64,000 nt of DNA, taken from assembly GCF_044324875.1 (NCBI RefSeq), contig NZ_CP172185.1; one strand, given 5' to 3'. The stretch's first letter is position 1, and the number at the start of each line of letters is the position of its first letter. The notes beneath the pieces were generated by a model that did no database searches, was not told where the DNA came from, and was given only the letters and a program-made list of their open reading frames with translations. The position numbers and the translations under genes were made by a program. Positions 2,779 to 11,406 of the stretch are shown here, piece by piece. This stretch comes from Escherichia coli. GTDB lineage: Bacteria; Pseudomonadota; Gammaproteobacteria; Enterobacterales; Enterobacteriaceae.

Positions 2779-2988
2779 ATGACTGCAATTCTGAGAAGAC
2801 GCAATAAAACGCTTTTTACCGATACATCCGGGATGGAATACGAAGTGGAAAGCAGTGTCATCGCCACCACCACCCGATGCCCGGCAGGTGACGAACTGAT
2901 TTACGTCCACCTGACGGACGGGTCACAGATAACCGTCCTGACAGAGTCATGGCGCGAACTCGAGATAATAAGCGAGGTAAGAACATGA
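2779..2988 (+). CDS. Hypothetical early-region protein
   Basis: 69-aa ORF. Confidence 0.45.
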   Translation: MTAILRRRNKTLFTDTSGMEYEVESSVIATTTRCPAGDELIYVHLTDGSQITVLTESWRELEIISEVRT

Positions 2989-3197
2989 GCAGCAAACACG
3001 ATACCAACGCACGCAGACCAGGCAAAGAGGCGCGTCACCATATCGCCGTAATGCGCAACCTGCTTATGAGTGAAATCGACGATTTTGTGGCAGGCCTGGG
3101 GCAACCGGGCGAACCAGCAACACCAGGCCAGATACACAGGGAATTACGCCGCCGCGTGGAAAACGTCGTGGATTACGTCATAAACCCGAACGACTGA
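2985..3197 (+). CDS. Hypothetical early-region protein
   Basis: 70 aa from the internal ATG 2985, which overlaps the upstream stop (ATGA). Confidence 0.45.
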   Translation: MSSKHDTNARRPGKEARHHIAVMRNLLMSEIDDFVAGLGQPGEPATPGQIHRELRRRVENVVDYVINPND

Positions 3198-3236
3198 CGG
3201 GAACATGGCGAGCGTCAGATGACACACGCAGGGCAC

Positions 3237-3719
3237 TTATCGGGAAAAACCGATCGTAATGGCAGCCATCATCTTTTCAGCGAAAGAGAGAGATTCACGA
3301 TGACTGATATTCAGAGACATACAGGCTTTGTTGTACGCCACATTTTCCATGCATTCCAGGACAGGAGAGTCATGCATCTCAAGCTCTGGAAGGCGTGCCA
3401 GCAGAGCTTCCGTACTGAGGAGGGCGCTTTTGGTAATCAACTCATTGTAGCGATGGGCATGCTCACTCGCCGCCTGCGCACGTTGCCCGAAACGACATAT
3501 GAAATTACAGGCTCCGAGAACCACCACCACTGCCCCAAGCACCCAGCCGAAATGCCAGCCGGCTACGATGAACGCACCCGCCGCAAGGATCAAAATGTTG
3601 ATGATCGCATCAAGGCGACGATTGAATACCGCCGCGATGCGCTCCAGCCAGTAGCTGTACCAGAGACGGAACATGACCTCATCCCGTTCTCTCGATTTTT
3701 TACGTTGGTTGTTTTGCAT
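3237..3719 (-). CDS. Two-TM membrane protein encoded antisense to the early operon (possible exclusion/abortive-infection effector; SLATT-like topology)
   Basis: 160 aa. Basic N-terminus, hydrophobic hairpin LDAIINILILAAGAFIVAGW / FGWVLGAVVVVLGACNFICRF, helical C-terminal half. GAGGG RBS. The overlapping + ORF 3219-3854 lacks an RBS. Confidence 0.5.
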   Translation of the reverse strand: MQNNQRKKSRERDEVMFRLWYSYWLERIAAVFNRRLDAIINILILAAGAFIVAGWHFGWVLGAVVVVLGACNFICRFGQRAQAASEHAHRYNELITKSALLSTEALLARLPELEMHDSPVLECMENVAYNKACMSLNISHRESLSFAEKMMAAITIGFSR

Positions 3720-3953
3720 GGTGTTTTATCCCTCATCGTCATCGCTCTGCCCCTAATCAGCGCAGAGTGCAGGGTAACCTGGCTCGTGGAATTTTTGCAG
3801 CCAGACATCTTTACCCCCGGGCGTGTTGAACAAAGTGTCCGCCAGATCCACTGAACGGCGGATTCATCAATGCTAACACGCCCTTCTTTTCCGGTTGAAG
3901 GCGAAAAAACCGGACCATTACCCCGACACAAAACAGAACAACGGAGAACAACT

Positions 3954-4508
3954 ATGCCCGCACTTAAACCTATGGGTGTATCAGGTGTACCACCGAAGCA
4001 TGTCAGAGCCTGGACACAACAGGAAGATGCTCTACTGGTCGGTTTATACCCCTCCCACACCGTACCAGAACTGACAAAACACTTTCAGAGAACCGGGCCA
4101 GCAATACGAAGCCGCATCCGTCTTTTGCTCTCTCAGGGGGTTATCCACACCAAACAACCCCCCCTGAATACAAAAGAACTCAACACGCTCATCAGGAATC
4201 GCCACACAAAAACCATCCGGGAACTCGCGAATGAACTGGGGCGCTCGACATCCACGGTGGGACTGAACCTGAGAAAAAGAGGGTACCGGTTCAGGAAATA
4301 CGGGGAACTCCACCACAGAGCCAGATACAGCGATCACCTGGTGGAGTTGGTAACTGAACTGCGCGATGAACAGGGGATGACATTCAGCGAAATCAGAAAG
4401 TACATCCGGGACATGGCCGGGATATCCCTTAAAAGATGGGTCCTCGCCCGGCTTTACGCACGATATACCGCCGCTGACACCGTGCTTTGCGAACTGCTAC
4501 CGGACTGA
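3954..4508 (+). CDS. DNA-binding protein with three tandem HTH-like modules (first is Myb/SANT-like)
   Basis: 184 aa from ATG 3954 (GGAGA RBS). Modules WTQQEDALLVGLY..., TIRELANELGRSTSTVGLNLRKRG and MTFSEIRKYIRDMAGISLKRW. Confidence 0.5.
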   Translation: MPALKPMGVSGVPPKHVRAWTQQEDALLVGLYPSHTVPELTKHFQRTGPAIRSRIRLLLSQGVIHTKQPPLNTKELNTLIRNRHTKTIRELANELGRSTSTVGLNLRKRGYRFRKYGELHHRARYSDHLVELVTELRDEQGMTFSEIRKYIRDMAGISLKRWVLARLYARYTAADTVLCELLPD

Positions 4509-4599
4509 GTAACCACTATGCACACACAAAAAAACCGCTTGCCATGCCGCAATCAGTCAGGTTACATTTCCGCTGCACCTCATAAAACGGGTGCCGGGA

Positions 4600-4813
4600 T
4601 TGCAACCCCCGCTGACAACTACAGCGCACAACCGCGCCAGCGGTTTTTTTGTGCGTACCGTATCGCCACGTCTTTTTCGCGCCAGAATTATGGCGGGGCG
4701 TATGGGGCCGACTTCGGTCGGGCCGGTTTCTGTAGTTGCCGGTGGTTGCAACCCTGTACGTCTCGCCACCCAGAATTGCAACCTCTGGATGGTGAGTTTT
4801 CAAAACTTGCAAC
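4600..4813. promoter_or_regulatory. Four TTGCAAC sites (one a perfect 10-bp palindrome GGTTGCAACC) upstream of ORF 4829
   Basis: TTGCAAC at 4600, 4746, 4776 and 4807; the last three are about 30 bp apart. Confidence 0.35.
4609..4650 (+). terminator. Intrinsic terminator-like hairpin plus T7 inside the early operon
   Basis: CCGCTG (4609-4614) pairs with CAGCGG (4638-4643), followed by TTTTTTT (4644-4650). Confidence 0.45.
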
Positions 4814-4828
4814 TACAGAGGCCACACC

Positions 4829-5053
4829 ATGGCAAACCGCAAACAACAGCGCGCATACGCTGCGCGTCGTCACATCCAGACTGAAATCAACCGCAGACTT
4901 TTCCGCGCATTCCGCGTCGCGCATATCATGCACATCAATATGCTGCATGAGCGCAGCCACGCACTGTCAAACATGTATTCCGCCGCTGTATTCAGCTACC
5001 TGGCGGATGACCTGCGCGAGCTGCAGGACCTCATTAACCAGCACCACCACTAA
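4829..5053 (+). CDS. Hypothetical early-region protein
   Basis: 74-aa ORF. Confidence 0.45.
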   Translation: MANRKQQRAYAARRHIQTEINRRLFRAFRVAHIMHINMLHERSHALSNMYSAAVFSYLADDLRELQDLINQHHH

Positions 5054-5121
5054 TCAACATCCCGGAGCCATCCCGCCCCCGTACGCGGGAGGCTTCCGCA
5101 CGTCCGTTTCCGGAGGTTCTC

Positions 5122-5535
5122 ATGAAGAGCGTTAAGGGACTTTCAGATATTCAGGATTTTTTTAACTGGATGTGGGCGGTGGATCCACGCCTCGCTTCCC
5201 GTCTCAATGACCTGCACGACTATTACCGCCGCGCCTGTAAACAGGCAGCCCGCAGCGCTGCCACATACGGGGATTTTTCCTTCACCGTTGACGACCGTTA
5301 CCGCGTGGATGTCAGAGACCAGAACCACAGCCTGGAGCTGGGCCTGTTCCACATCAACGGGTGCGACAGCAGCGTTATCAGCTGGTCATCGTCAGAAATG
5401 GTGCTCGTTCTGGAAATGACCACCCACAGCGTGGTCGTGAAAGGGATTAAAACAGCAGAAGACTTTATCGCTGAATACCAGCGCCTTCTTGTGCTGTACC
5501 GGGCTGCATTTCAGAAGGCAACAGCAGGGGAGTAA
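5122..5535 (+). CDS. Hypothetical protein immediately upstream of A (P2 B position)
   Basis: 137-aa ORF, GGAGG RBS, no motif recognised. Confidence 0.5.
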   Translation: MKSVKGLSDIQDFFNWMWAVDPRLASRLNDLHDYYRRACKQAARSAATYGDFSFTVDDRYRVDVRDQNHSLELGLFHINGCDSSVISWSSSEMVLVLEMTTHSVVVKGIKTAEDFIAEYQRLLVLYRAAFQKATAGE

Positions 5536-5540
5536 GCGGA

Positions 5541-8051
5541 ATGAGCCATCACCACACGCACCTGGCGTACCCGTGGAACGCCCCGCTGCCGGTTATTGAT
5601 CCTGAGACATTCGGCAGAGCATTACCGCAGAAGCCAACCGCATTACAACGGGCAATCCGTGACTACCTCACCGAAGACATTCGCACTGAGGCCCGGCTGG
5701 ATGAAGAAACCGTGGCCTTCCTGACAACCACGGACAAAGGTAAGCAAATTAATTCACACCTTCACCGGGACGAAGAGCGGCAGATAAGGCTGGATAAGCT
5801 GGCACGACACAGACGCGAAAATCCGCCAACGGCGGTATCGGAGGCGATAGCCGAACTTCGCACCCTGCCCTCGTTTCTTGCCAGTGTGTTGATCCGTGAT
5901 CTGGCACGACTGAACCGGAAACAGCAAAGTGCCCGCAGTGAAGGTGTAAAAAACAACAGCGCATACGTGGCCGATAATTTCGTTCGCCGTGGACTGCGTG
6001 CGCGCCTGAAACGTATTGAAAGGGTTAACGACCGCTTTGCAACGCCGGCATTCAAAACCACCGTCGTGCGCCATCGCCTTGAAGAACTGCTCACACTGCC
6101 GCAACTCACCCGTGACGAAATCCAGCGCATCGCCACACTGACAGCCCAGGCATTCGCCGCAGAATTTGAACGCATATGTGATGAAGTTCTTGAACGGACA
6201 GGCAAGGATAATGACAGCCCGGTTATCTGGCTGCTGGCCTACCAGAAGGTGGCACGCACAGCCTTAATTCTGGGCATGGTCCCGCCATACTGGCCGGAAC
6301 TCGAAATCAGGCACAACCGACGCACACCGCCGGACCCTGAACGGGTTCCGGGTGCGGTACTGCGCATCACCTGCGCGACCTGGTGGAACAACCAGTTACG
6401 CCACGTCGCCGATCTCTGGCGGGAGGAGTTACTGCGCGCCGCCGGCAGAGTGTCACGTAAACAATCCCCCTATATCAGCCATGAGTCACTACTGGAGTTC
6501 CGCGAGAAGCGCCAGCGCACCTGTGACTTTCTCAAAAGCTGGGATATTGAAAACGAAGACGGCGAGCGCCTGAGTCTGGAGGACGTGTACTGGGCTGGCC
6601 TGGGTAATCCACGCAACCGCCGCAATGAAATGATGGTCTGCGTCAGAGGGATGGAGATGGTGGCCGAATTACGGGCTGACGTCGCATTCTTCATCACAGT
6701 AACCACCCCTTCCCGCTTTCACAGCGTGAACGAGAACGGCAGCCTGAACCCGAAATACAACGGTGCCACAGTACGAGATGCCAGTGATTATCTGGTTTAC
6801 GACTTCTTCGCAGCCGTAAGAAAAAAAATAAAAAAAGAGGGGCTGGGCTGGTACGGCGTGCGAACCGCTGAGCCACACCATGACGGCACGCCACACTGGC
6901 ATATGCTGGTATTCACTTCCCCGGAGAACGCAGAGCGCATCATCGAAATTATGCGCGAAGCAGCAATTAAATCAGATCGCCACGAACTGGGGGACGATAT
7001 TTCACCGCGCTTTAAATGCGAGAAGATAGACCCGGAAAAAGGCACACCGGCAAGCTATATCGCAACCTATATCGGTAAGAACCTGGACGCCAGCGCTTTC
7101 CACAACAATGATCCGAAAACCGGAAAACCTTACGTTGATGAGGAATCCGGGAAAACCATGGCGGAAACCGTGGAGAACGCCATTGCCTGGGCAAGCCTTC
7201 ACCGCATCCGTCAGTTCCAGTTTTTCGGCATTCCGCCCCGCCAGGTATGGCGTGAACTCCGCCGCCTTGCAAGCCAGATGGAGCGCAACCCGGCATCACC
7301 GAAGCACCTCGATCATGACGATATTGACGCCATTATGGCTGCCGCAGATGTGGGATGTTTTGCCACCTACATCATGAAACAGGGTGGTGTGCTCATTCCG
7401 CGCAACCAGTATCTGGTCCGCACCGCATACGAAACCGCAGACGAAGCCAACGACTACGGTGAATTCCCTCAACGTATCTACGGAATCTGCGCCCCGTCGC
7501 TCGGAGAGCGGTACACCATATGCACCCATCCGGACGAGTGGAAACTGGTTAAAAAAGAAACAATACCAGACAACCGCACGGGCGAGGGTTTTGACCTTCA
7601 GGGCGACCCCGTCGCCCCTTGGACTCGTGGCAATAACTGTCCCCGGGATGAAAAAACAGACAATCACGGACCAGAAAACAGGCAGGACCCCGGACGACTG
7701 ACGCTTCCCGAAGAGAACCTGGAAAGCTGGCTGAATACGTTAAGCAGGGGCGATCGGAGAAAACTGCGTAATCAGATTAAAAATCAGCCGTCGGGCGCAA
7801 AAACCGGACAAAACGACACCACACCGGCATCTGACACCCCTGTAAGGGTGGGGATTGTCGTGCCTGCGGATACCGCGACGGACACGCAAATCGCCCGCGA
7901 ACTTGATGCGCTGGGTGTGCAGTTGCCTGACGCGGCCATCATCTCCGTGCGTAACGGTGCCCGTGTGCGTCTGGATAACGGGGGAACAGCGTACTGGGAT
8001 GAGTCAGCCCGTCACATCATCACAGAGCAGCCAGTGGAGGCGGGAGCATGA
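5541..8051 (+). CDS. A: Replication initiation endonuclease gpA (rolling-circle nickase)
   Basis: 836 aa. HUH-type motif EPHHDGTPHWHMLVF and catalytic Tyr motif SYIATYIGKNL; size and position as P2 A. Confidence 0.9.
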   Translation: MSHHHTHLAYPWNAPLPVIDPETFGRALPQKPTALQRAIRDYLTEDIRTEARLDEETVAFLTTTDKGKQINSHLHRDEERQIRLDKLARHRRENPPTAVSEAIAELRTLPSFLASVLIRDLARLNRKQQSARSEGVKNNSAYVADNFVRRGLRARLKRIERVNDRFATPAFKTTVVRHRLEELLTLPQLTRDEIQRIATLTAQAFAAEFERICDEVLERTGKDNDSPVIWLLAYQKVARTALILGMVPPYWPELEIRHNRRTPPDPERVPGAVLRITCATWWNNQLRHVADLWREELLRAAGRVSRKQSPYISHESLLEFREKRQRTCDFLKSWDIENEDGERLSLEDVYWAGLGNPRNRRNEMMVCVRGMEMVAELRADVAFFITVTTPSRFHSVNENGSLNPKYNGATVRDASDYLVYDFFAAVRKKIKKEGLGWYGVRTAEPHHDGTPHWHMLVFTSPENAERIIEIMREAAIKSDRHELGDDISPRFKCEKIDPEKGTPASYIATYIGKNLDASAFHNNDPKTGKPYVDEESGKTMAETVENAIAWASLHRIRQFQFFGIPPRQVWRELRRLASQMERNPASPKHLDHDDIDAIMAAADVGCFATYIMKQGGVLIPRNQYLVRTAYETADEANDYGEFPQRIYGICAPSLGERYTICTHPDEWKLVKKETIPDNRTGEGFDLQGDPVAPWTRGNNCPRDEKTDNHGPENRQDPGRLTLPEENLESWLNTLSRGDRRKLRNQIKNQPSGAKTGQNDTTPASDTPVRVGIVVPADTATDTQIARELDALGVQLPDAAIISVRNGARVRLDNGGTAYWDESARHIITEQPVEAGA

Positions 8052-8860: not shown

Positions 8861-9616
8861 TTAACGCGTTTTTTCGCTGCTTTCCACTACCGGGGGATTT
8901 TTCCTCAGTGACTCTCCCTGAAGGACCACTCGGTGTGAGTTATGTACCAGTCTGTCCAGGATGGCATCTGCTGTTGTTGGGTTCTCCATCAGACCATGCC
9001 ATTTATCTACCGGGAACTGGCTTACCACTATCGTGCTGCTTTGTCCGTAACGATCCTCTATGAGCTCCAGAAGGTCATTACACTGGGCGTTACTTAACTG
9101 TTCCAGCCCCAGATCGTCCAGGATTAGAACCTGTATTTTTTGCAACTGTTTCAGATATTTCAGCCAGCTGCCATCAACACGTCCCTGAGCCAGTTGTTCC
9201 AGTAATCGCCCGGTTCTACAGTACCGGACGCTGTGTTTCTGTCGACATGCCTGTTCGCCCAGCGCATTGGCTATCCAGCTCTTGCCACATCCTGTCGGAC
9301 CGGTTATCAGCAGGTTTTTCCTGTGGGTTATGTAGTGGCCGTTCAGCAGTTCTCTCATCTGTTCAGCCCGCAGACCTCTTGAGGCCGGATAGCGCAGCCC
9401 TTCCGGTGTTGCCTGGTATTTCAGGCCGGCATTTTTTCTCAACCGTGCCACACGGCTGTTTTCCCTGCTCAGAAGCTCGTCATCAACCAGCAGCGTCAGC
9501 CTTTCCTCGAACGACAGTTCGTCGTAGGTCTGAGGCGTTTCCCGCTGCCGTATCAGGCTCCCGGCCATCGCCGGGAGTTTCAGTTGGGTCAGTTTGTTTA
9601 ACAGGTTATCACTCAT
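8861..9616 (-). CDS. istB: IS21-family helper ATPase IstB
   Basis: 251 aa from ATG 9616 (AAGGAA RBS); Walker A GPTGCGKSW; DnaA/IstB-like. Confidence 0.85.
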   Translation of the reverse strand: MSDNLLNKLTQLKLPAMAGSLIRQRETPQTYDELSFEERLTLLVDDELLSRENSRVARLRKNAGLKYQATPEGLRYPASRGLRAEQMRELLNGHYITHRKNLLITGPTGCGKSWIANALGEQACRQKHSVRYCRTGRLLEQLAQGRVDGSWLKYLKQLQKIQVLILDDLGLEQLSNAQCNDLLELIEDRYGQSSTIVVSQFPVDKWHGLMENPTTADAILDRLVHNSHRVVLQGESLRKNPPVVESSEKTR

Positions 9617-9632
9617 ACTGTTGTTCCTTCTG

Positions 9633-11168
9633 TCAGTGGTAGTAGCCCGGACCACGCAGGTTTTCATGCTCTGAAGCATATGCCGGATGTTGTTCGCCCT
9701 GGCGGGATAATGGAAGCTCCAGGTTCTCCCGATGGTGACGCAGCAGATTGTCGATAAAGCGTCTGTCAGGGGCGTTATAGTGCAGGGCAACGTAACAGGC
9801 CTTTTCCAGCCGTTCCGGGCCGTATTTTTTCTGAAGTGCCAGCAGCCCCAGAACTGCACGATAAGCCAGTTCCGGATGGGGTTTTGCCTTCAGCATGGAT
9901 TCAACCACCCGGCCTGTGGACGGGCCCGTACGTTTTCCCTGCTCGATCAGGCGTTCCGGTGTCCATGTCCCGTGCTGCCGGTGGCGCTCTGGCATGTGAA
10001 GCGGATTGGTTGTGTGTTTATATTCATGTGTGCTGCGCGGATGTTGCGCCACACACTGCCCCTTGTGCCAGAGCTGTACCACCGACTGCCCCGCCTTCAG
10101 TGACAGACGCTGACCGACCAGTTCGTGTGGAACGGAGTACCAGTGACGGGCATATTCAACGTGGTAGTCAGGGCCAACCTTCACAGCTTTGTATTCCGTG
10201 TATTCATAAGGTGCCAGAGGCAGCGGAGAGAGTGCTGGCGCATCCAGTATGCGGAAGCGTTCTGCACGGGTTTGATTGCCGTACCCCTTCATTGGCCGGT
10301 TATTCATGTCTGTCAGTAACTCCCTAAGGCGCGCATTCAGCGCCCTGAGCGTGTGGAAGGTTTCATTACGGATGCGGGCAAGAAGCCATCGTTCAACGAT
10401 GAGGACGCCGTTTTCTGCTTTTGGTTTATCTTTAGGTTTGCGTGGTCGGGCCGGGATGATAACCGTGCCATAGTGCTCAGCCAGTGCCTGATAACTGTCG
10501 TTGATGACAGGCTCATATCGATCGGCCTTTTTCACTGCGCTTCTGAGGTTATCGGGGATGAGCAGCTTCGGTACGCCGCCCAGGAAGGTCAGGCAACGGC
10601 TGTGGGCATTTAACCATGACATCATGTCCTGACCTTCGCACGCTTCAACGTAGGTATAGTTGGACGCCCCCATTACGGCCACGAAGATTGCCACGCGGCG
10701 TATCTCACCGGTGTCCGGATTAATAACAGGAACCGTAGGACCACAGAAGTCGATAAAAAGCTTTTCGCCGGCACGATGCTCCTGGCGCATGGAGAGACGT
10801 CGCGTTTTTTTCCACTCCCGGTAGCAACGGCAGAAGTGCGAGTATCCCATCGCTTTGTTACCCGCCTGTGCCTTGTATTCCATCCACAACAGTTGCCGCG
10901 TCACACCTGGTTTTCTCATTTCCGTATCGAAGTACAACATGTCAGGCATTACAAGCTCTGATGCAAAGGTGTCTTTGGGCGGAAAAATGAGTTTCTCCAG
11001 CGTGTCATGGGATATATCAGCAGGTAATGGCCATGACAGAGAAGAGGCTTTGAAGCGGGCAAGAACCTCAAAAACGGTTGAGGCGCTGATGTGTAACGTC
11101 AGTCCGATACAACGGTTAGTCAGCTTCTTGTCGAACTTGAGCTGAAGGATCTTAAAACAGGTTTCCAT
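9633..11168 (-). CDS. istA: IS21-family transposase IstA
   Basis: 511 aa from ATG 11168 (AGGAG RBS). N-terminal HTH and DDE core (FIDF ... IPDN ... KAENGV). Confidence 0.85.
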   Translation of the reverse strand: METCFKILQLKFDKKLTNRCIGLTLHISASTVFEVLARFKASSLSWPLPADISHDTLEKLIFPPKDTFASELVMPDMLYFDTEMRKPGVTRQLLWMEYKAQAGNKAMGYSHFCRCYREWKKTRRLSMRQEHRAGEKLFIDFCGPTVPVINPDTGEIRRVAIFVAVMGASNYTYVEACEGQDMMSWLNAHSRCLTFLGGVPKLLIPDNLRSAVKKADRYEPVINDSYQALAEHYGTVIIPARPRKPKDKPKAENGVLIVERWLLARIRNETFHTLRALNARLRELLTDMNNRPMKGYGNQTRAERFRILDAPALSPLPLAPYEYTEYKAVKVGPDYHVEYARHWYSVPHELVGQRLSLKAGQSVVQLWHKGQCVAQHPRSTHEYKHTTNPLHMPERHRQHGTWTPERLIEQGKRTGPSTGRVVESMLKAKPHPELAYRAVLGLLALQKKYGPERLEKACYVALHYNAPDRRFIDNLLRHHRENLELPLSRQGEQHPAYASEHENLRGPGYYH

Positions 11169-11406
11169 AGTGCTCCTGGATTTTCTCTTTCTGGACATTG
11201 ACGTCTCCACTGGTTTAAACACGGCAATGGAGACTGTGGTGAAAAGAGTTAATTCCCGGAGTGACTGGCAGGATGCCAATCAATGATCGGAAGCATGCCA
11301 AATCGTGATCGATTGTGATGCCAAACTGTGATCGGAGATGGATGCCAAATCATGATCGATTCGAATGCCAAACTGCGATCGATTCAGATGCCATTTTGCA
11401 TCAGTC

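Follow-up and report, generated by a model that had tools for sequence, protein, structure and literature searches.

The stretch of DNA analysed here, 64,000 nt of Escherichia coli contig NZ_CP172185.1 (the window), begins inside a P2-like prophage (Peduoviridae, P88/Xuanwuvirus-type), and its early region raises the question of how an operon read on the plus strand accommodates a gene for a small membrane protein, at 3237-3719, that faces the other way, and why the plus strand opposite that gene is open from end to end. The explanation we favour, with a probability of roughly 55%, is that the gene belongs to a lysogen-expressed effector cassette built around a membrane protein of SLATT-like type, and that the opposite, operon-sense frame (here the mirror open reading frame, or mirror ORF) is kept open against Rho polarity. 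No other result was as unexpected, or is as interesting, as the mirror-ORF signal, which is well supported as an observation. The features of the locus are given below in window coordinates; homologous loci elsewhere carry L numbers, and PGAP is the NCBI Prokaryotic Genome Annotation Pipeline.

3237-3719, minus: gene for a 160-aa protein with two transmembrane (TM) helices, from a match to phrog_6315, PGAP, its coding signature, an AlphaFold2 (AF2) model and hydropathy
3219-3854, plus: mirror ORF of 211 aa, in exact codon register with the membrane gene and spanning the whole antisense cassette
3753-3808, minus: remnant of a decayed small upstream ORF, from alignment with L008, L007 and L009
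3838-3862, minus: hairpin TCCGCC...GGCGGA, read from the sequence, where the cassette transcript is predicted to begin
3870-3899, minus: candidate cassette promoter, from alignment of upstream regions
3909-3944, minus: two overlapping terminator-like sites (hairpin plus T-run), just upstream of the candidate promoter
3954-4508, plus: gene for a 184-aa DNA-binding protein with several helix-turn-helix (HTH) modules, from phrog_323, weak Pfam HTH matches and the PGAP name 'DNA-binding protein'

That the minus-strand gene is real follows from its family match, its annotation and its pattern of substitution. The product of 3237-3719 matched phrog_6315 over its full length (E 5.2e-65), and PGAP calls it as a coding sequence (WP_029399959.1) in an identical prophage. 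Coding was assessed among five homologues, namely the window gene and those of the E. coli prophages L008 and L009, the viral contig L007 and the Yersinia phage vB_YenM_42.18 (L002), the proteins of the latter four being 38-58% identical to that of the window. In all ten pairwise comparisons the differences by minus-frame codon position ranked 3 > 1 > 2 (for the window and L008, 48, 30 and 88 at positions 1, 2 and 3), and amino-acid identity was higher every time in the minus frame (0.39-0.76) than in the plus frame (0.21-0.51). The plus-frame product of 3219-3854 had no match in Pfam, PHROGs or PADLOC. A preliminary description of the locus had allowed that this plus-strand ORF might be the true gene; it is not the conserved coding frame.

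The mirror ORF, not the membrane gene, is what has been annotated in two related phages. In the Salmonella prophage Fels-2 (L039, NC_010463 30256-30982) the operon-sense mirror ORF is entered as STM2733.1.Fels2, and in Yersinia phage vB_YenM_42.18 (2950-3615) as vBYenM4218_008; in both, the membrane gene and the small ORF upstream of it are unannotated. In Fels-2 the membrane gene also runs into the 3' end of fil, with an overlap of about 53 nt.

A stop codon can occur in the mirror frame only where the membrane gene uses TTA, CTA or TCA, and counts of these codons are therefore a measure of openness. None was present among the 160 codons of the window membrane gene (3.1-4.2 expected), and the five homologues together had two, against about 26 expected from the codon usage of their neighbours; under each gene's own third-position composition the depletion gave P values of 0.0006-0.044 per lineage. 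The set was widened to eight P2-like lineages (the window, L008, L009, L007, L002, L028, L017 and Fels-2, mutually 23-75% identical) and five members from other contexts (L012, L015, L021, L040 and L041). Mirror stops numbered 4 per 250 leucine and serine codons in the former and 56 per 180 in the latter (Fisher p = 2e-19), with at most one stop in each of the eight P2-like lineages and at least nine (9-15) in each of the five others. The four residual P2-like stops all fall at codons 117-154, on the side from which the sense frame runs into the membrane gene. GC content does not explain the openness, because P2-like lineages with a low GC fraction at third codon positions (GC3; Yersinia phage 0.36, L028 0.40, Fels-2 0.43) are as open as the rest. 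An open mirror frame was found in none of the 50 other long ORFs of the window, the median being 1.8 stops per 100 codons. Lambdoid members under Q or N control do not keep the mirror frame open. The Mu-like member (L020) has a single mirror stop, at codon 6, and its antisense cassette is crossed, within the operon-oriented stretch 3046-4128 of that locus, by three abutting sense ORFs (3046-3579, 3582-3734 and 3736-4128); this 'keep translating' layout thus appears outside the P2-like phages too.

The sequence of the mirror ORF shows no comparable conservation. Fourfold-degenerate sites of the membrane gene, which are the first positions of the mirror frame, differ between lineages at 63-66%, a divergence that equals or exceeds that of flanking genes, and the amino-acid constraint on the plus frame that an overlapping gene would show is absent, both position-3 and fourfold sites being unconstrained. 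Length and ends vary as well (183-456 codons, the longest being that of L009, where the ORF is fused to one of the 4518-5135 type). An alternative Shine-Dalgarno (SD) sequence and ATG at 3300 are conserved, the ATG lying opposite the codon for the conserved His-140 of the membrane protein, and the SD-like purine-rich run before the ATG is the complement of CTY/TCY leucine and serine codons. The stop codon of the mirror ORF falls in or close to the next early gene, with an overlap of 4 nt in L017 and a distance of 30 nt to gpB in the Yersinia phage. It is well supported as an observation that the operon-sense frame of the P2-like lineages, judged from their sequences, is under selection to stay open while its sequence is not. 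Openness free of sequence constraint and correlated with phage type therefore points to translation as such, rather than to a second protein.

The membrane gene does not stand alone. Alignment of the upstream regions, and a search for ORFs ending just before the membrane gene, brought out a conserved, proline-rich small ORF of 26-50 aa, whose end lies 5-9 nt before the membrane gene in ten or more relatives. Its product has the motif F/Y-H-x-x-H/R-K/Q-P-x-P-x-P-E with a mostly acidic tail after it. It was found in L008, L007, L009, L002, L028, L016, L024, the Mu-like L020, the lambdoid L021, L015, L040 and L041, and Fels-2, and is missing from L017 (a P0029-type P2-like prophage) and L012. The window copy is frameshifted by a 1-nt deletion after the ATG at 3808; its ancestral frame still reads to KFHEPGYPALCAD and a stop, and ends 33 nt before the membrane gene. 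This small peptide ORF, and not the HTH gene, is the conserved partner of the membrane gene.

Further upstream, the candidate promoter consists of a -35 element TTCAAC (3899-3894), an 18-nt spacer and an extended -10 element TGTTAGCAT (3878-3870). The block of about 40 nt that contains it hardly varies across lineages whose proteins share only about 55-60% identity, and in Yersinia-type lineages TGnTAnnnT is kept at the equivalent position. The upstream element is retained also in lineages without the HTH gene. A stem of different sequence occupies the place of the 3838-3862 hairpin in L008, L007 and L009, and the terminator-like sites at 3909-3944 could insulate the cassette from antisense transcription arriving through the HTH gene. 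The 3870-3899 block is likely an autonomous cassette promoter. The preliminary description had taken 3720-3953 for a 234-bp intergenic region; its length is as given, but it is no empty spacer, as it holds the frameshifted small-ORF remnant and the likely promoter. The cassette, comprising the proline-rich acidic peptide ORF, the 2-TM gene and what is probably a promoter of its own, is a unit that travels self-contained.

The same description credited the membrane protein with a basic N-terminus, a tight hydrophobic hairpin and a helical C-terminal half, and each of these stands. Residues 1-37 include nine lysines or arginines; a single hydrophobic stretch at 38-76 is divided by WHFG into two TM helices according to hydropathy; and the C-terminal half is helical by both AF2 and hydropathy. 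The protein is one of the inner membrane; its TM helices are predicted at about 38-56 and 58-76, with basic residues flanking the hydrophobic block and both termini predicted to be cytoplasmic. An exhaustive HMMER search placed 162 cluster representatives in the phrog_6315 family, nearly all of them 150-165 aa long and aligned over the full length. AF2 required an alignment of 110 sequences, which gave a model with a predicted local distance difference test score (pLDDT) of 95.6 and a predicted TM-score (pTM) of 0.88, whereas an alignment of four sequences gave a pLDDT of 44.7. Helices in the model span 2-52, 58-75, 77-99, 103-114, 123-135 and 146-155, so that a long N-terminal helix continues into TM1 (2-52) and is followed by TM2 (58-75) and four cytoplasmic helices. 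The model thus shows the SLATT arrangement of a tight 2-TM hairpin between N- and C-terminal helices.

Sequence searches point the same way at low scores. In NCBIfam the sole match of the window protein was SLATT_1 (E 0.006, 16.5 bits against a cut-off of 41); among the 110 relatives, SLATT_4 was matched by 26 (best 8.6e-7), SLATT_1 by seven, and any other family by one member at most. With PADLOC, 13 of the 110 relatives had matches to models of this kind, ten matching the '2TM effector' models of cyclic-oligonucleotide-based anti-phage signalling systems (CBASS) and three the SLATT models associated with reverse transcriptase (RT); the window protein itself had no significant defence model there, the best being LeoBC with E 0.018 and partial coverage. 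Sub-threshold matches were thus consistent, and to SLATT only. Among Foldseek matches in BFVD, ranks 1, 3, 4, 6, 9, 15, 17 and 19 were annotated as SLATT (TM-score 0.5-0.7, E 9e-3 to 0.3), and the PDB returned only generic helical hairpins with no specific match. No Pfam family was matched consistently by the 110 relatives, the phrog_6315 family has no Pfam model, and Pfam SLATT was matched by none of the relatives at E <= 0.01. The suggestion that the protein is of SLATT type therefore has remote support in sequence and fold, but curated SLATT cut-offs are not reached. Because the SLATT signals are weak and the PDB matches only generic, the family is better described as a remote SLATT-like branch of the 2-TM effector superfamily than as a curated-family member; three independent but weak lines suggest this placement. 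SieB, the other family that had been named, was rejected, as Pfam SieB (PF14163) had no match at E <= 1.

These observations can be combined as follows. In the lysogen, the C repressor would silence the early promoter and the cassette would be transcribed alone. The membrane protein may serve as an exclusion or abortive-infection effector that perturbs the membrane once a superinfecting phage is sensed, and the small peptide may modulate it. Firing of the prophage early promoter would send convergent transcription across the cassette and turn it down, in parallel with sieB and sas of P22. To our knowledge, P2-like phages do without antitermination of the N or Q type in their early transcription. 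A stretch of about 640 nt of antisense-derived RNA, if left untranslated, would then expose the early transcript to Rho termination ahead of the replication genes, and a translatable mirror ORF would keep ribosomes on the transcript across the insert, averting Rho polarity. In lambdoid operons, as we propose, the frame is closed because an antiterminated polymerase would need no ribosome shielding. The membrane gene is ancestral and the open frame derived in P2-like early operons, since elsewhere the family is common and its mirror frames are closed. That P2-like phages, and probably Mu-like ones, tolerate an antisense cassette within an essential operon only by virtue of a mirror ORF selected for translation is a tentative proposal, held at somewhat less than even odds. 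What its ribosomes would shield against may be Rho or, alternatively, the pairing of sense and antisense RNA, and the mechanism inferred for the mirror ORF is moderately speculative.

Four other explanations were weighed. It is unlikely that the cassette is an addiction or maintenance module of toxin-antitoxin type, with the acidic peptide as antitoxin and the 2-TM protein as toxin. Its layout is typical of such pairs, a small ORF coming first and ending 5-9 nt before the gene for a larger partner that is itself a small membrane protein, and the cassette is mobile among unrelated phages; yet an essential antitoxin is hard to reconcile with a 2-TM gene that persists without the peptide ORF (in the P0029-type L017 and in L012) or with a frameshifted one (in the window type, 26 E. 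coli genomes), and no toxin-antitoxin family was matched in Pfam, NCBIfam or PADLOC. Quite unlikely, too, is that the open mirror frame is an artefact of composition or sampling, arising from codon bias and shared ancestry, and that the membrane gene is simply an antisense moron. The frequency of A at third codon positions (A3) is indeed lower in the P2-like members (0.14-0.24) than in the five controls (0.24-0.31), the lineages do share ancestry, and 13 contexts were examined. The depletion of TTA, CTA and TCA is nonetheless significant under the genes' own third-position composition and against their neighbours' codon usage, openness persists at the low GC3 values given above, synonymous sites are near saturation between lineages, no other long ORF of the window has an open mirror, and the residual stops are confined to the C-terminal end of the membrane gene.

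A real or additional early gene at 3219-3854, which would make the minus-strand ORF a shadow or the two a true antisense overlapping pair, is improbable and was rejected on the minus-frame substitution pattern and the unconstrained fourfold sites. In its favour, all P2-like lineages keep the plus frame open opposite the gene, it has SD and ATG signals and operon-like packing, and the depositors of vB_YenM_42.18 and Fels-2 chose it. Its product, however, matches no library and is less conserved between lineages than that of the minus frame, its first positions have diverged no less than flanking genes, its length and ends are variable, and the 9-15 stops in the plus frame of non-P2 members mark the membrane protein as ancestral and the open frame as derived. 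The most improbable of the four is the effector with its own regulator that the preliminary description had proposed for the membrane and HTH genes. The two are adjacent and divergent in two diverged lineages, the window type and the L008 type, between which the membrane proteins are 58-60% and the HTH proteins 49% identical, and this adjacency covers 30 of the 31 E. coli genomes with the membrane gene. Most lineages, however, hold one gene without the other, and the conserved upstream element of the cassette persists where the HTH gene is missing.

The wider distribution of the HTH gene explains the pairing otherwise. The protein matches phrog_323, 'transcriptional regulator', at 2.4e-27, and the three HTH modules ascribed to it are visible as weak Pfam HTH-type matches at about 35-65, 76-103 and 124-160, none of which reaches its gathering threshold. 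Source records, too, name its homologues 'DNA-binding protein'. The ATG at 3870, where an N-terminally longer form of the protein may start, is the complement of the proposed cassette -10. At 80% DNA identity or more, the gene occurs in 62 complete E. coli genomes, just 26 of them of the window type. Homologues with 51-88% identity are co-directional and tightly packed in early operons that have no membrane gene; there the HTH gene overlaps the upstream early gene by 4 nt, and it always stands just upstream of an Ash-like/derepression module. The membrane gene in turn occurs without it in L009, L007, the Yersinia phage, Fels-2, P0029-type prophages and all non-P2 contexts, so that the two adjoin in 2 of the at least 13 lineages examined. 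The HTH gene is an ordinary early-operon gene, and its pairing with the membrane gene is a neighbourhood coincidence in a variable slot.

Several points weigh against the cassette and mirror-ORF explanation that we prefer. The curated SLATT cut-off was passed by no member, and Pfam SLATT was absent at E <= 1 for the window protein; in at least 13 contexts no SMODS, SLOG, RT or other signal-generating partner adjoined the gene, and we know of no phenotype on record for any member of the phrog_6315 family. The cassette promoter was assigned from conservation, and a generic promoter scan called no minus-strand promoter in 3720-3953. In the window the peptide ORF is broken, the out-of-frame ORF from ATG 3808 reading across the start of the membrane gene, and this copy of the cassette may be poorly expressed or decaying. 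As to Rho, gaps of 100-126 nt are still untranslated in some lineages, and across the gene the sense RNA is only mildly richer in C than in G (ratio 1.14), which does not amount to strong independent evidence of a Rho loading site. The non-P2 controls are only five, and tend to be more A+T-rich.

The placement of the cassette is consistent across hosts in one respect, being on the strand opposite the surrounding lytic operon in every prophage examined. The P2-like slot lies before HTH or Ash-like genes in the window, L008, L009 and L007, between a MarR-like gene and the isrK/C4 region in L017-L019, before the gpB gene in the Yersinia phage, and between fil and STM2733 in Fels-2. In lambdoid phages the cassette occupies the gap between antiterminator Q and the holin genes or lies in the left arm, and the placement is antisense in the Mu-like phage (L020) as well. 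One member (L012) is co-directional with a Type ISP restriction enzyme and near an AAA_23 protein. The membrane gene was detected in 31 complete E. coli genomes by BLASTN in 'distant' mode, 26 of them having the window type; scans of genome contigs and, with P0010, of viral contigs gave no match, and alignment-based locus searches found no block conserved enough. Antisense placement in several types of temperate phage, together with the context of L012, is the pattern of a moron expressed independently of lytic transcription, and from this placement an exclusion or abortive-infection role in the lysogen is inferred.

In L012 (1014-11911) the gene of the distant member, P0152, and the 3' end of the gene for a 1669-aa Type ISP restriction-modification enzyme overlap; a 606-aa gene and a 1035-aa AAA_23/SMC-like gene come next, in a setting that resembles a defence island.

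Among known systems, the closest in form are the SLATT proteins of NCBIfam (SLATT_1, SLATT_4), the '2TM' effectors of CBASS and the RT-associated SLATT proteins of defence-associated reverse transcriptases (DRT), with which the phrog_6315 family shares the order of N-terminal helix, 2-TM hairpin and helical cytoplasmic C-terminus, as well as sub-threshold matches, best folds and a neighbourhood of mobile elements and defence genes. It differs in that no curated model is passed, that no nucleotide-signalling enzyme, SLOG or RT adjoins, that the partner is a peptide of 26-50 aa and that the gene is a stand-alone antisense prophage moron. SLATT proteins are required effectors in RT-based defence of the DRT10 type (bioRxiv 10.64898/2026.04.29.721553). 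In P22, sieB mediates superinfection exclusion and is controlled by the antisense RNA sas (PMC12197685); with sieB and sas of P22 and lambda the present system has in common a small prophage membrane protein, a gene in the early operon region and, as proposed here, antisense control, but the two are unrelated in sequence, the phrog_6315 family has no known internal start of the Esc kind, and in lambdoid contexts it does not keep the opposite frame open. The antisense overlapping genes of E. coli O157:H7 (PMC9927249) likewise include a long antisense-register ORF with SD and start; here, by difference, openness alone is conserved and tracks phage type. The accessory hotspot old/tin of P2-like phages, beside cos, often carries anti-phage cargo (Rousset et al. 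2022, PMC9122126). Both are variable P2-like cargo, but the present cassette is antisense within the early operon, ahead of the replication genes. The literature yielded no description of the phrog_6315 family, of its small-ORF partner or of an ORF selected for openness opposite an antisense prophage gene, and nothing relevant on Fels-2 locus tags, on SLATT in P2-like prophages or on antisense ORFs and Rho polarity.

What is new is a widespread, uncharacterised prophage cassette (phrog_6315, about 160 clusters) that pairs a proline-rich acidic peptide with a SLATT-like 2-TM protein and, being without an enzymatic sensor, is a compact candidate for an anti-phage or exclusion module. It is present in a model prophage, Salmonella Fels-2, where it has been annotated on the wrong strand. 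The contrast between an open frame in phages without antitermination and a closed one in N- or Q-controlled lambdoid operons amounts to a natural experiment. If the proposal is true, it would define a class of ORFs selected for openness with an unselected product, in which translation itself is the trait, and it would explain why the annotators of Fels-2 and of the Yersinia phage called the 'wrong' strand; the mirror ORF bears in this way on the dispute whether long bacterial antisense ORFs are genes. The apparent effector-regulator pair, which arose by coincidence, is a caution against guilt by adjacency within phage operons.

The surrounding prophage can be read from a close relative, as positions 3100-4600 of the window have 100% DNA identity with the dmsA-adjacent prophage of E. 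coli NRZ14408 (NZ_CP158426). There PGAP lists a C-type repressor on the minus strand and then, on the plus strand, cox, DUF4761, DUF4754 and several small hypothetical genes, followed by the sole minus-strand hypothetical gene (window 3237-3719), the 'DNA-binding protein' (3954-4508), two hypothetical genes and the replication endonuclease (5541-8051). From cox to the replication endonuclease all genes but this one are thus on the plus strand, in agreement with the lone antisense gene first described. The coordinates reported for the two divergent genes were also correct, the ORF listing giving an ATG-initiated ORF of 160 aa at 3237-3719 (minus) and an ORF at 3870/3954-4508 (plus). Plus-strand ORFs tile positions 2949-8051 of the window with gaps of at most 22 nt. 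Other features of the early region are:

2949-3197, 3219-3854, 3870-4508, 4518-5135, 5122-5535 and 5541-8051, plus: tiling ORFs
4539-4568: sigma-70-like site from the promoter scan, preceding isrK
4575-4650, plus: isrK RNA (Rfam, 60 bits, above the gathering score)
4686-4773, plus: C4 antisense RNA (Rfam, 80 bits, above the gathering score)
4829-5053, plus: 'derepression protein' gene, downstream of isrK and C4

The isrK and C4 RNAs come directly after the HTH gene and ahead of the derepression gene, and the three together look like an RNA-controlled antirepressor module of the P1/P4/Gifsy type within a P2-like early operon. The 205-aa ORF at 4518-5135 (plus) contains the isrK and C4 sequences and also overlaps the derepression gene, which lies in another frame; its homologues are labelled Phage_ASH, weakly, by gene callers, and by PGAP as a truncated 'ash family' pseudogene. 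Just past the early region, the prophage contains an IS21-family insertion element on the minus strand at 8861-11279 (istB 8861-9859, istA 9633-11279); in the otherwise identical prophage of NRZ14408, an ISEc12 istA is found at another place and in the other orientation.

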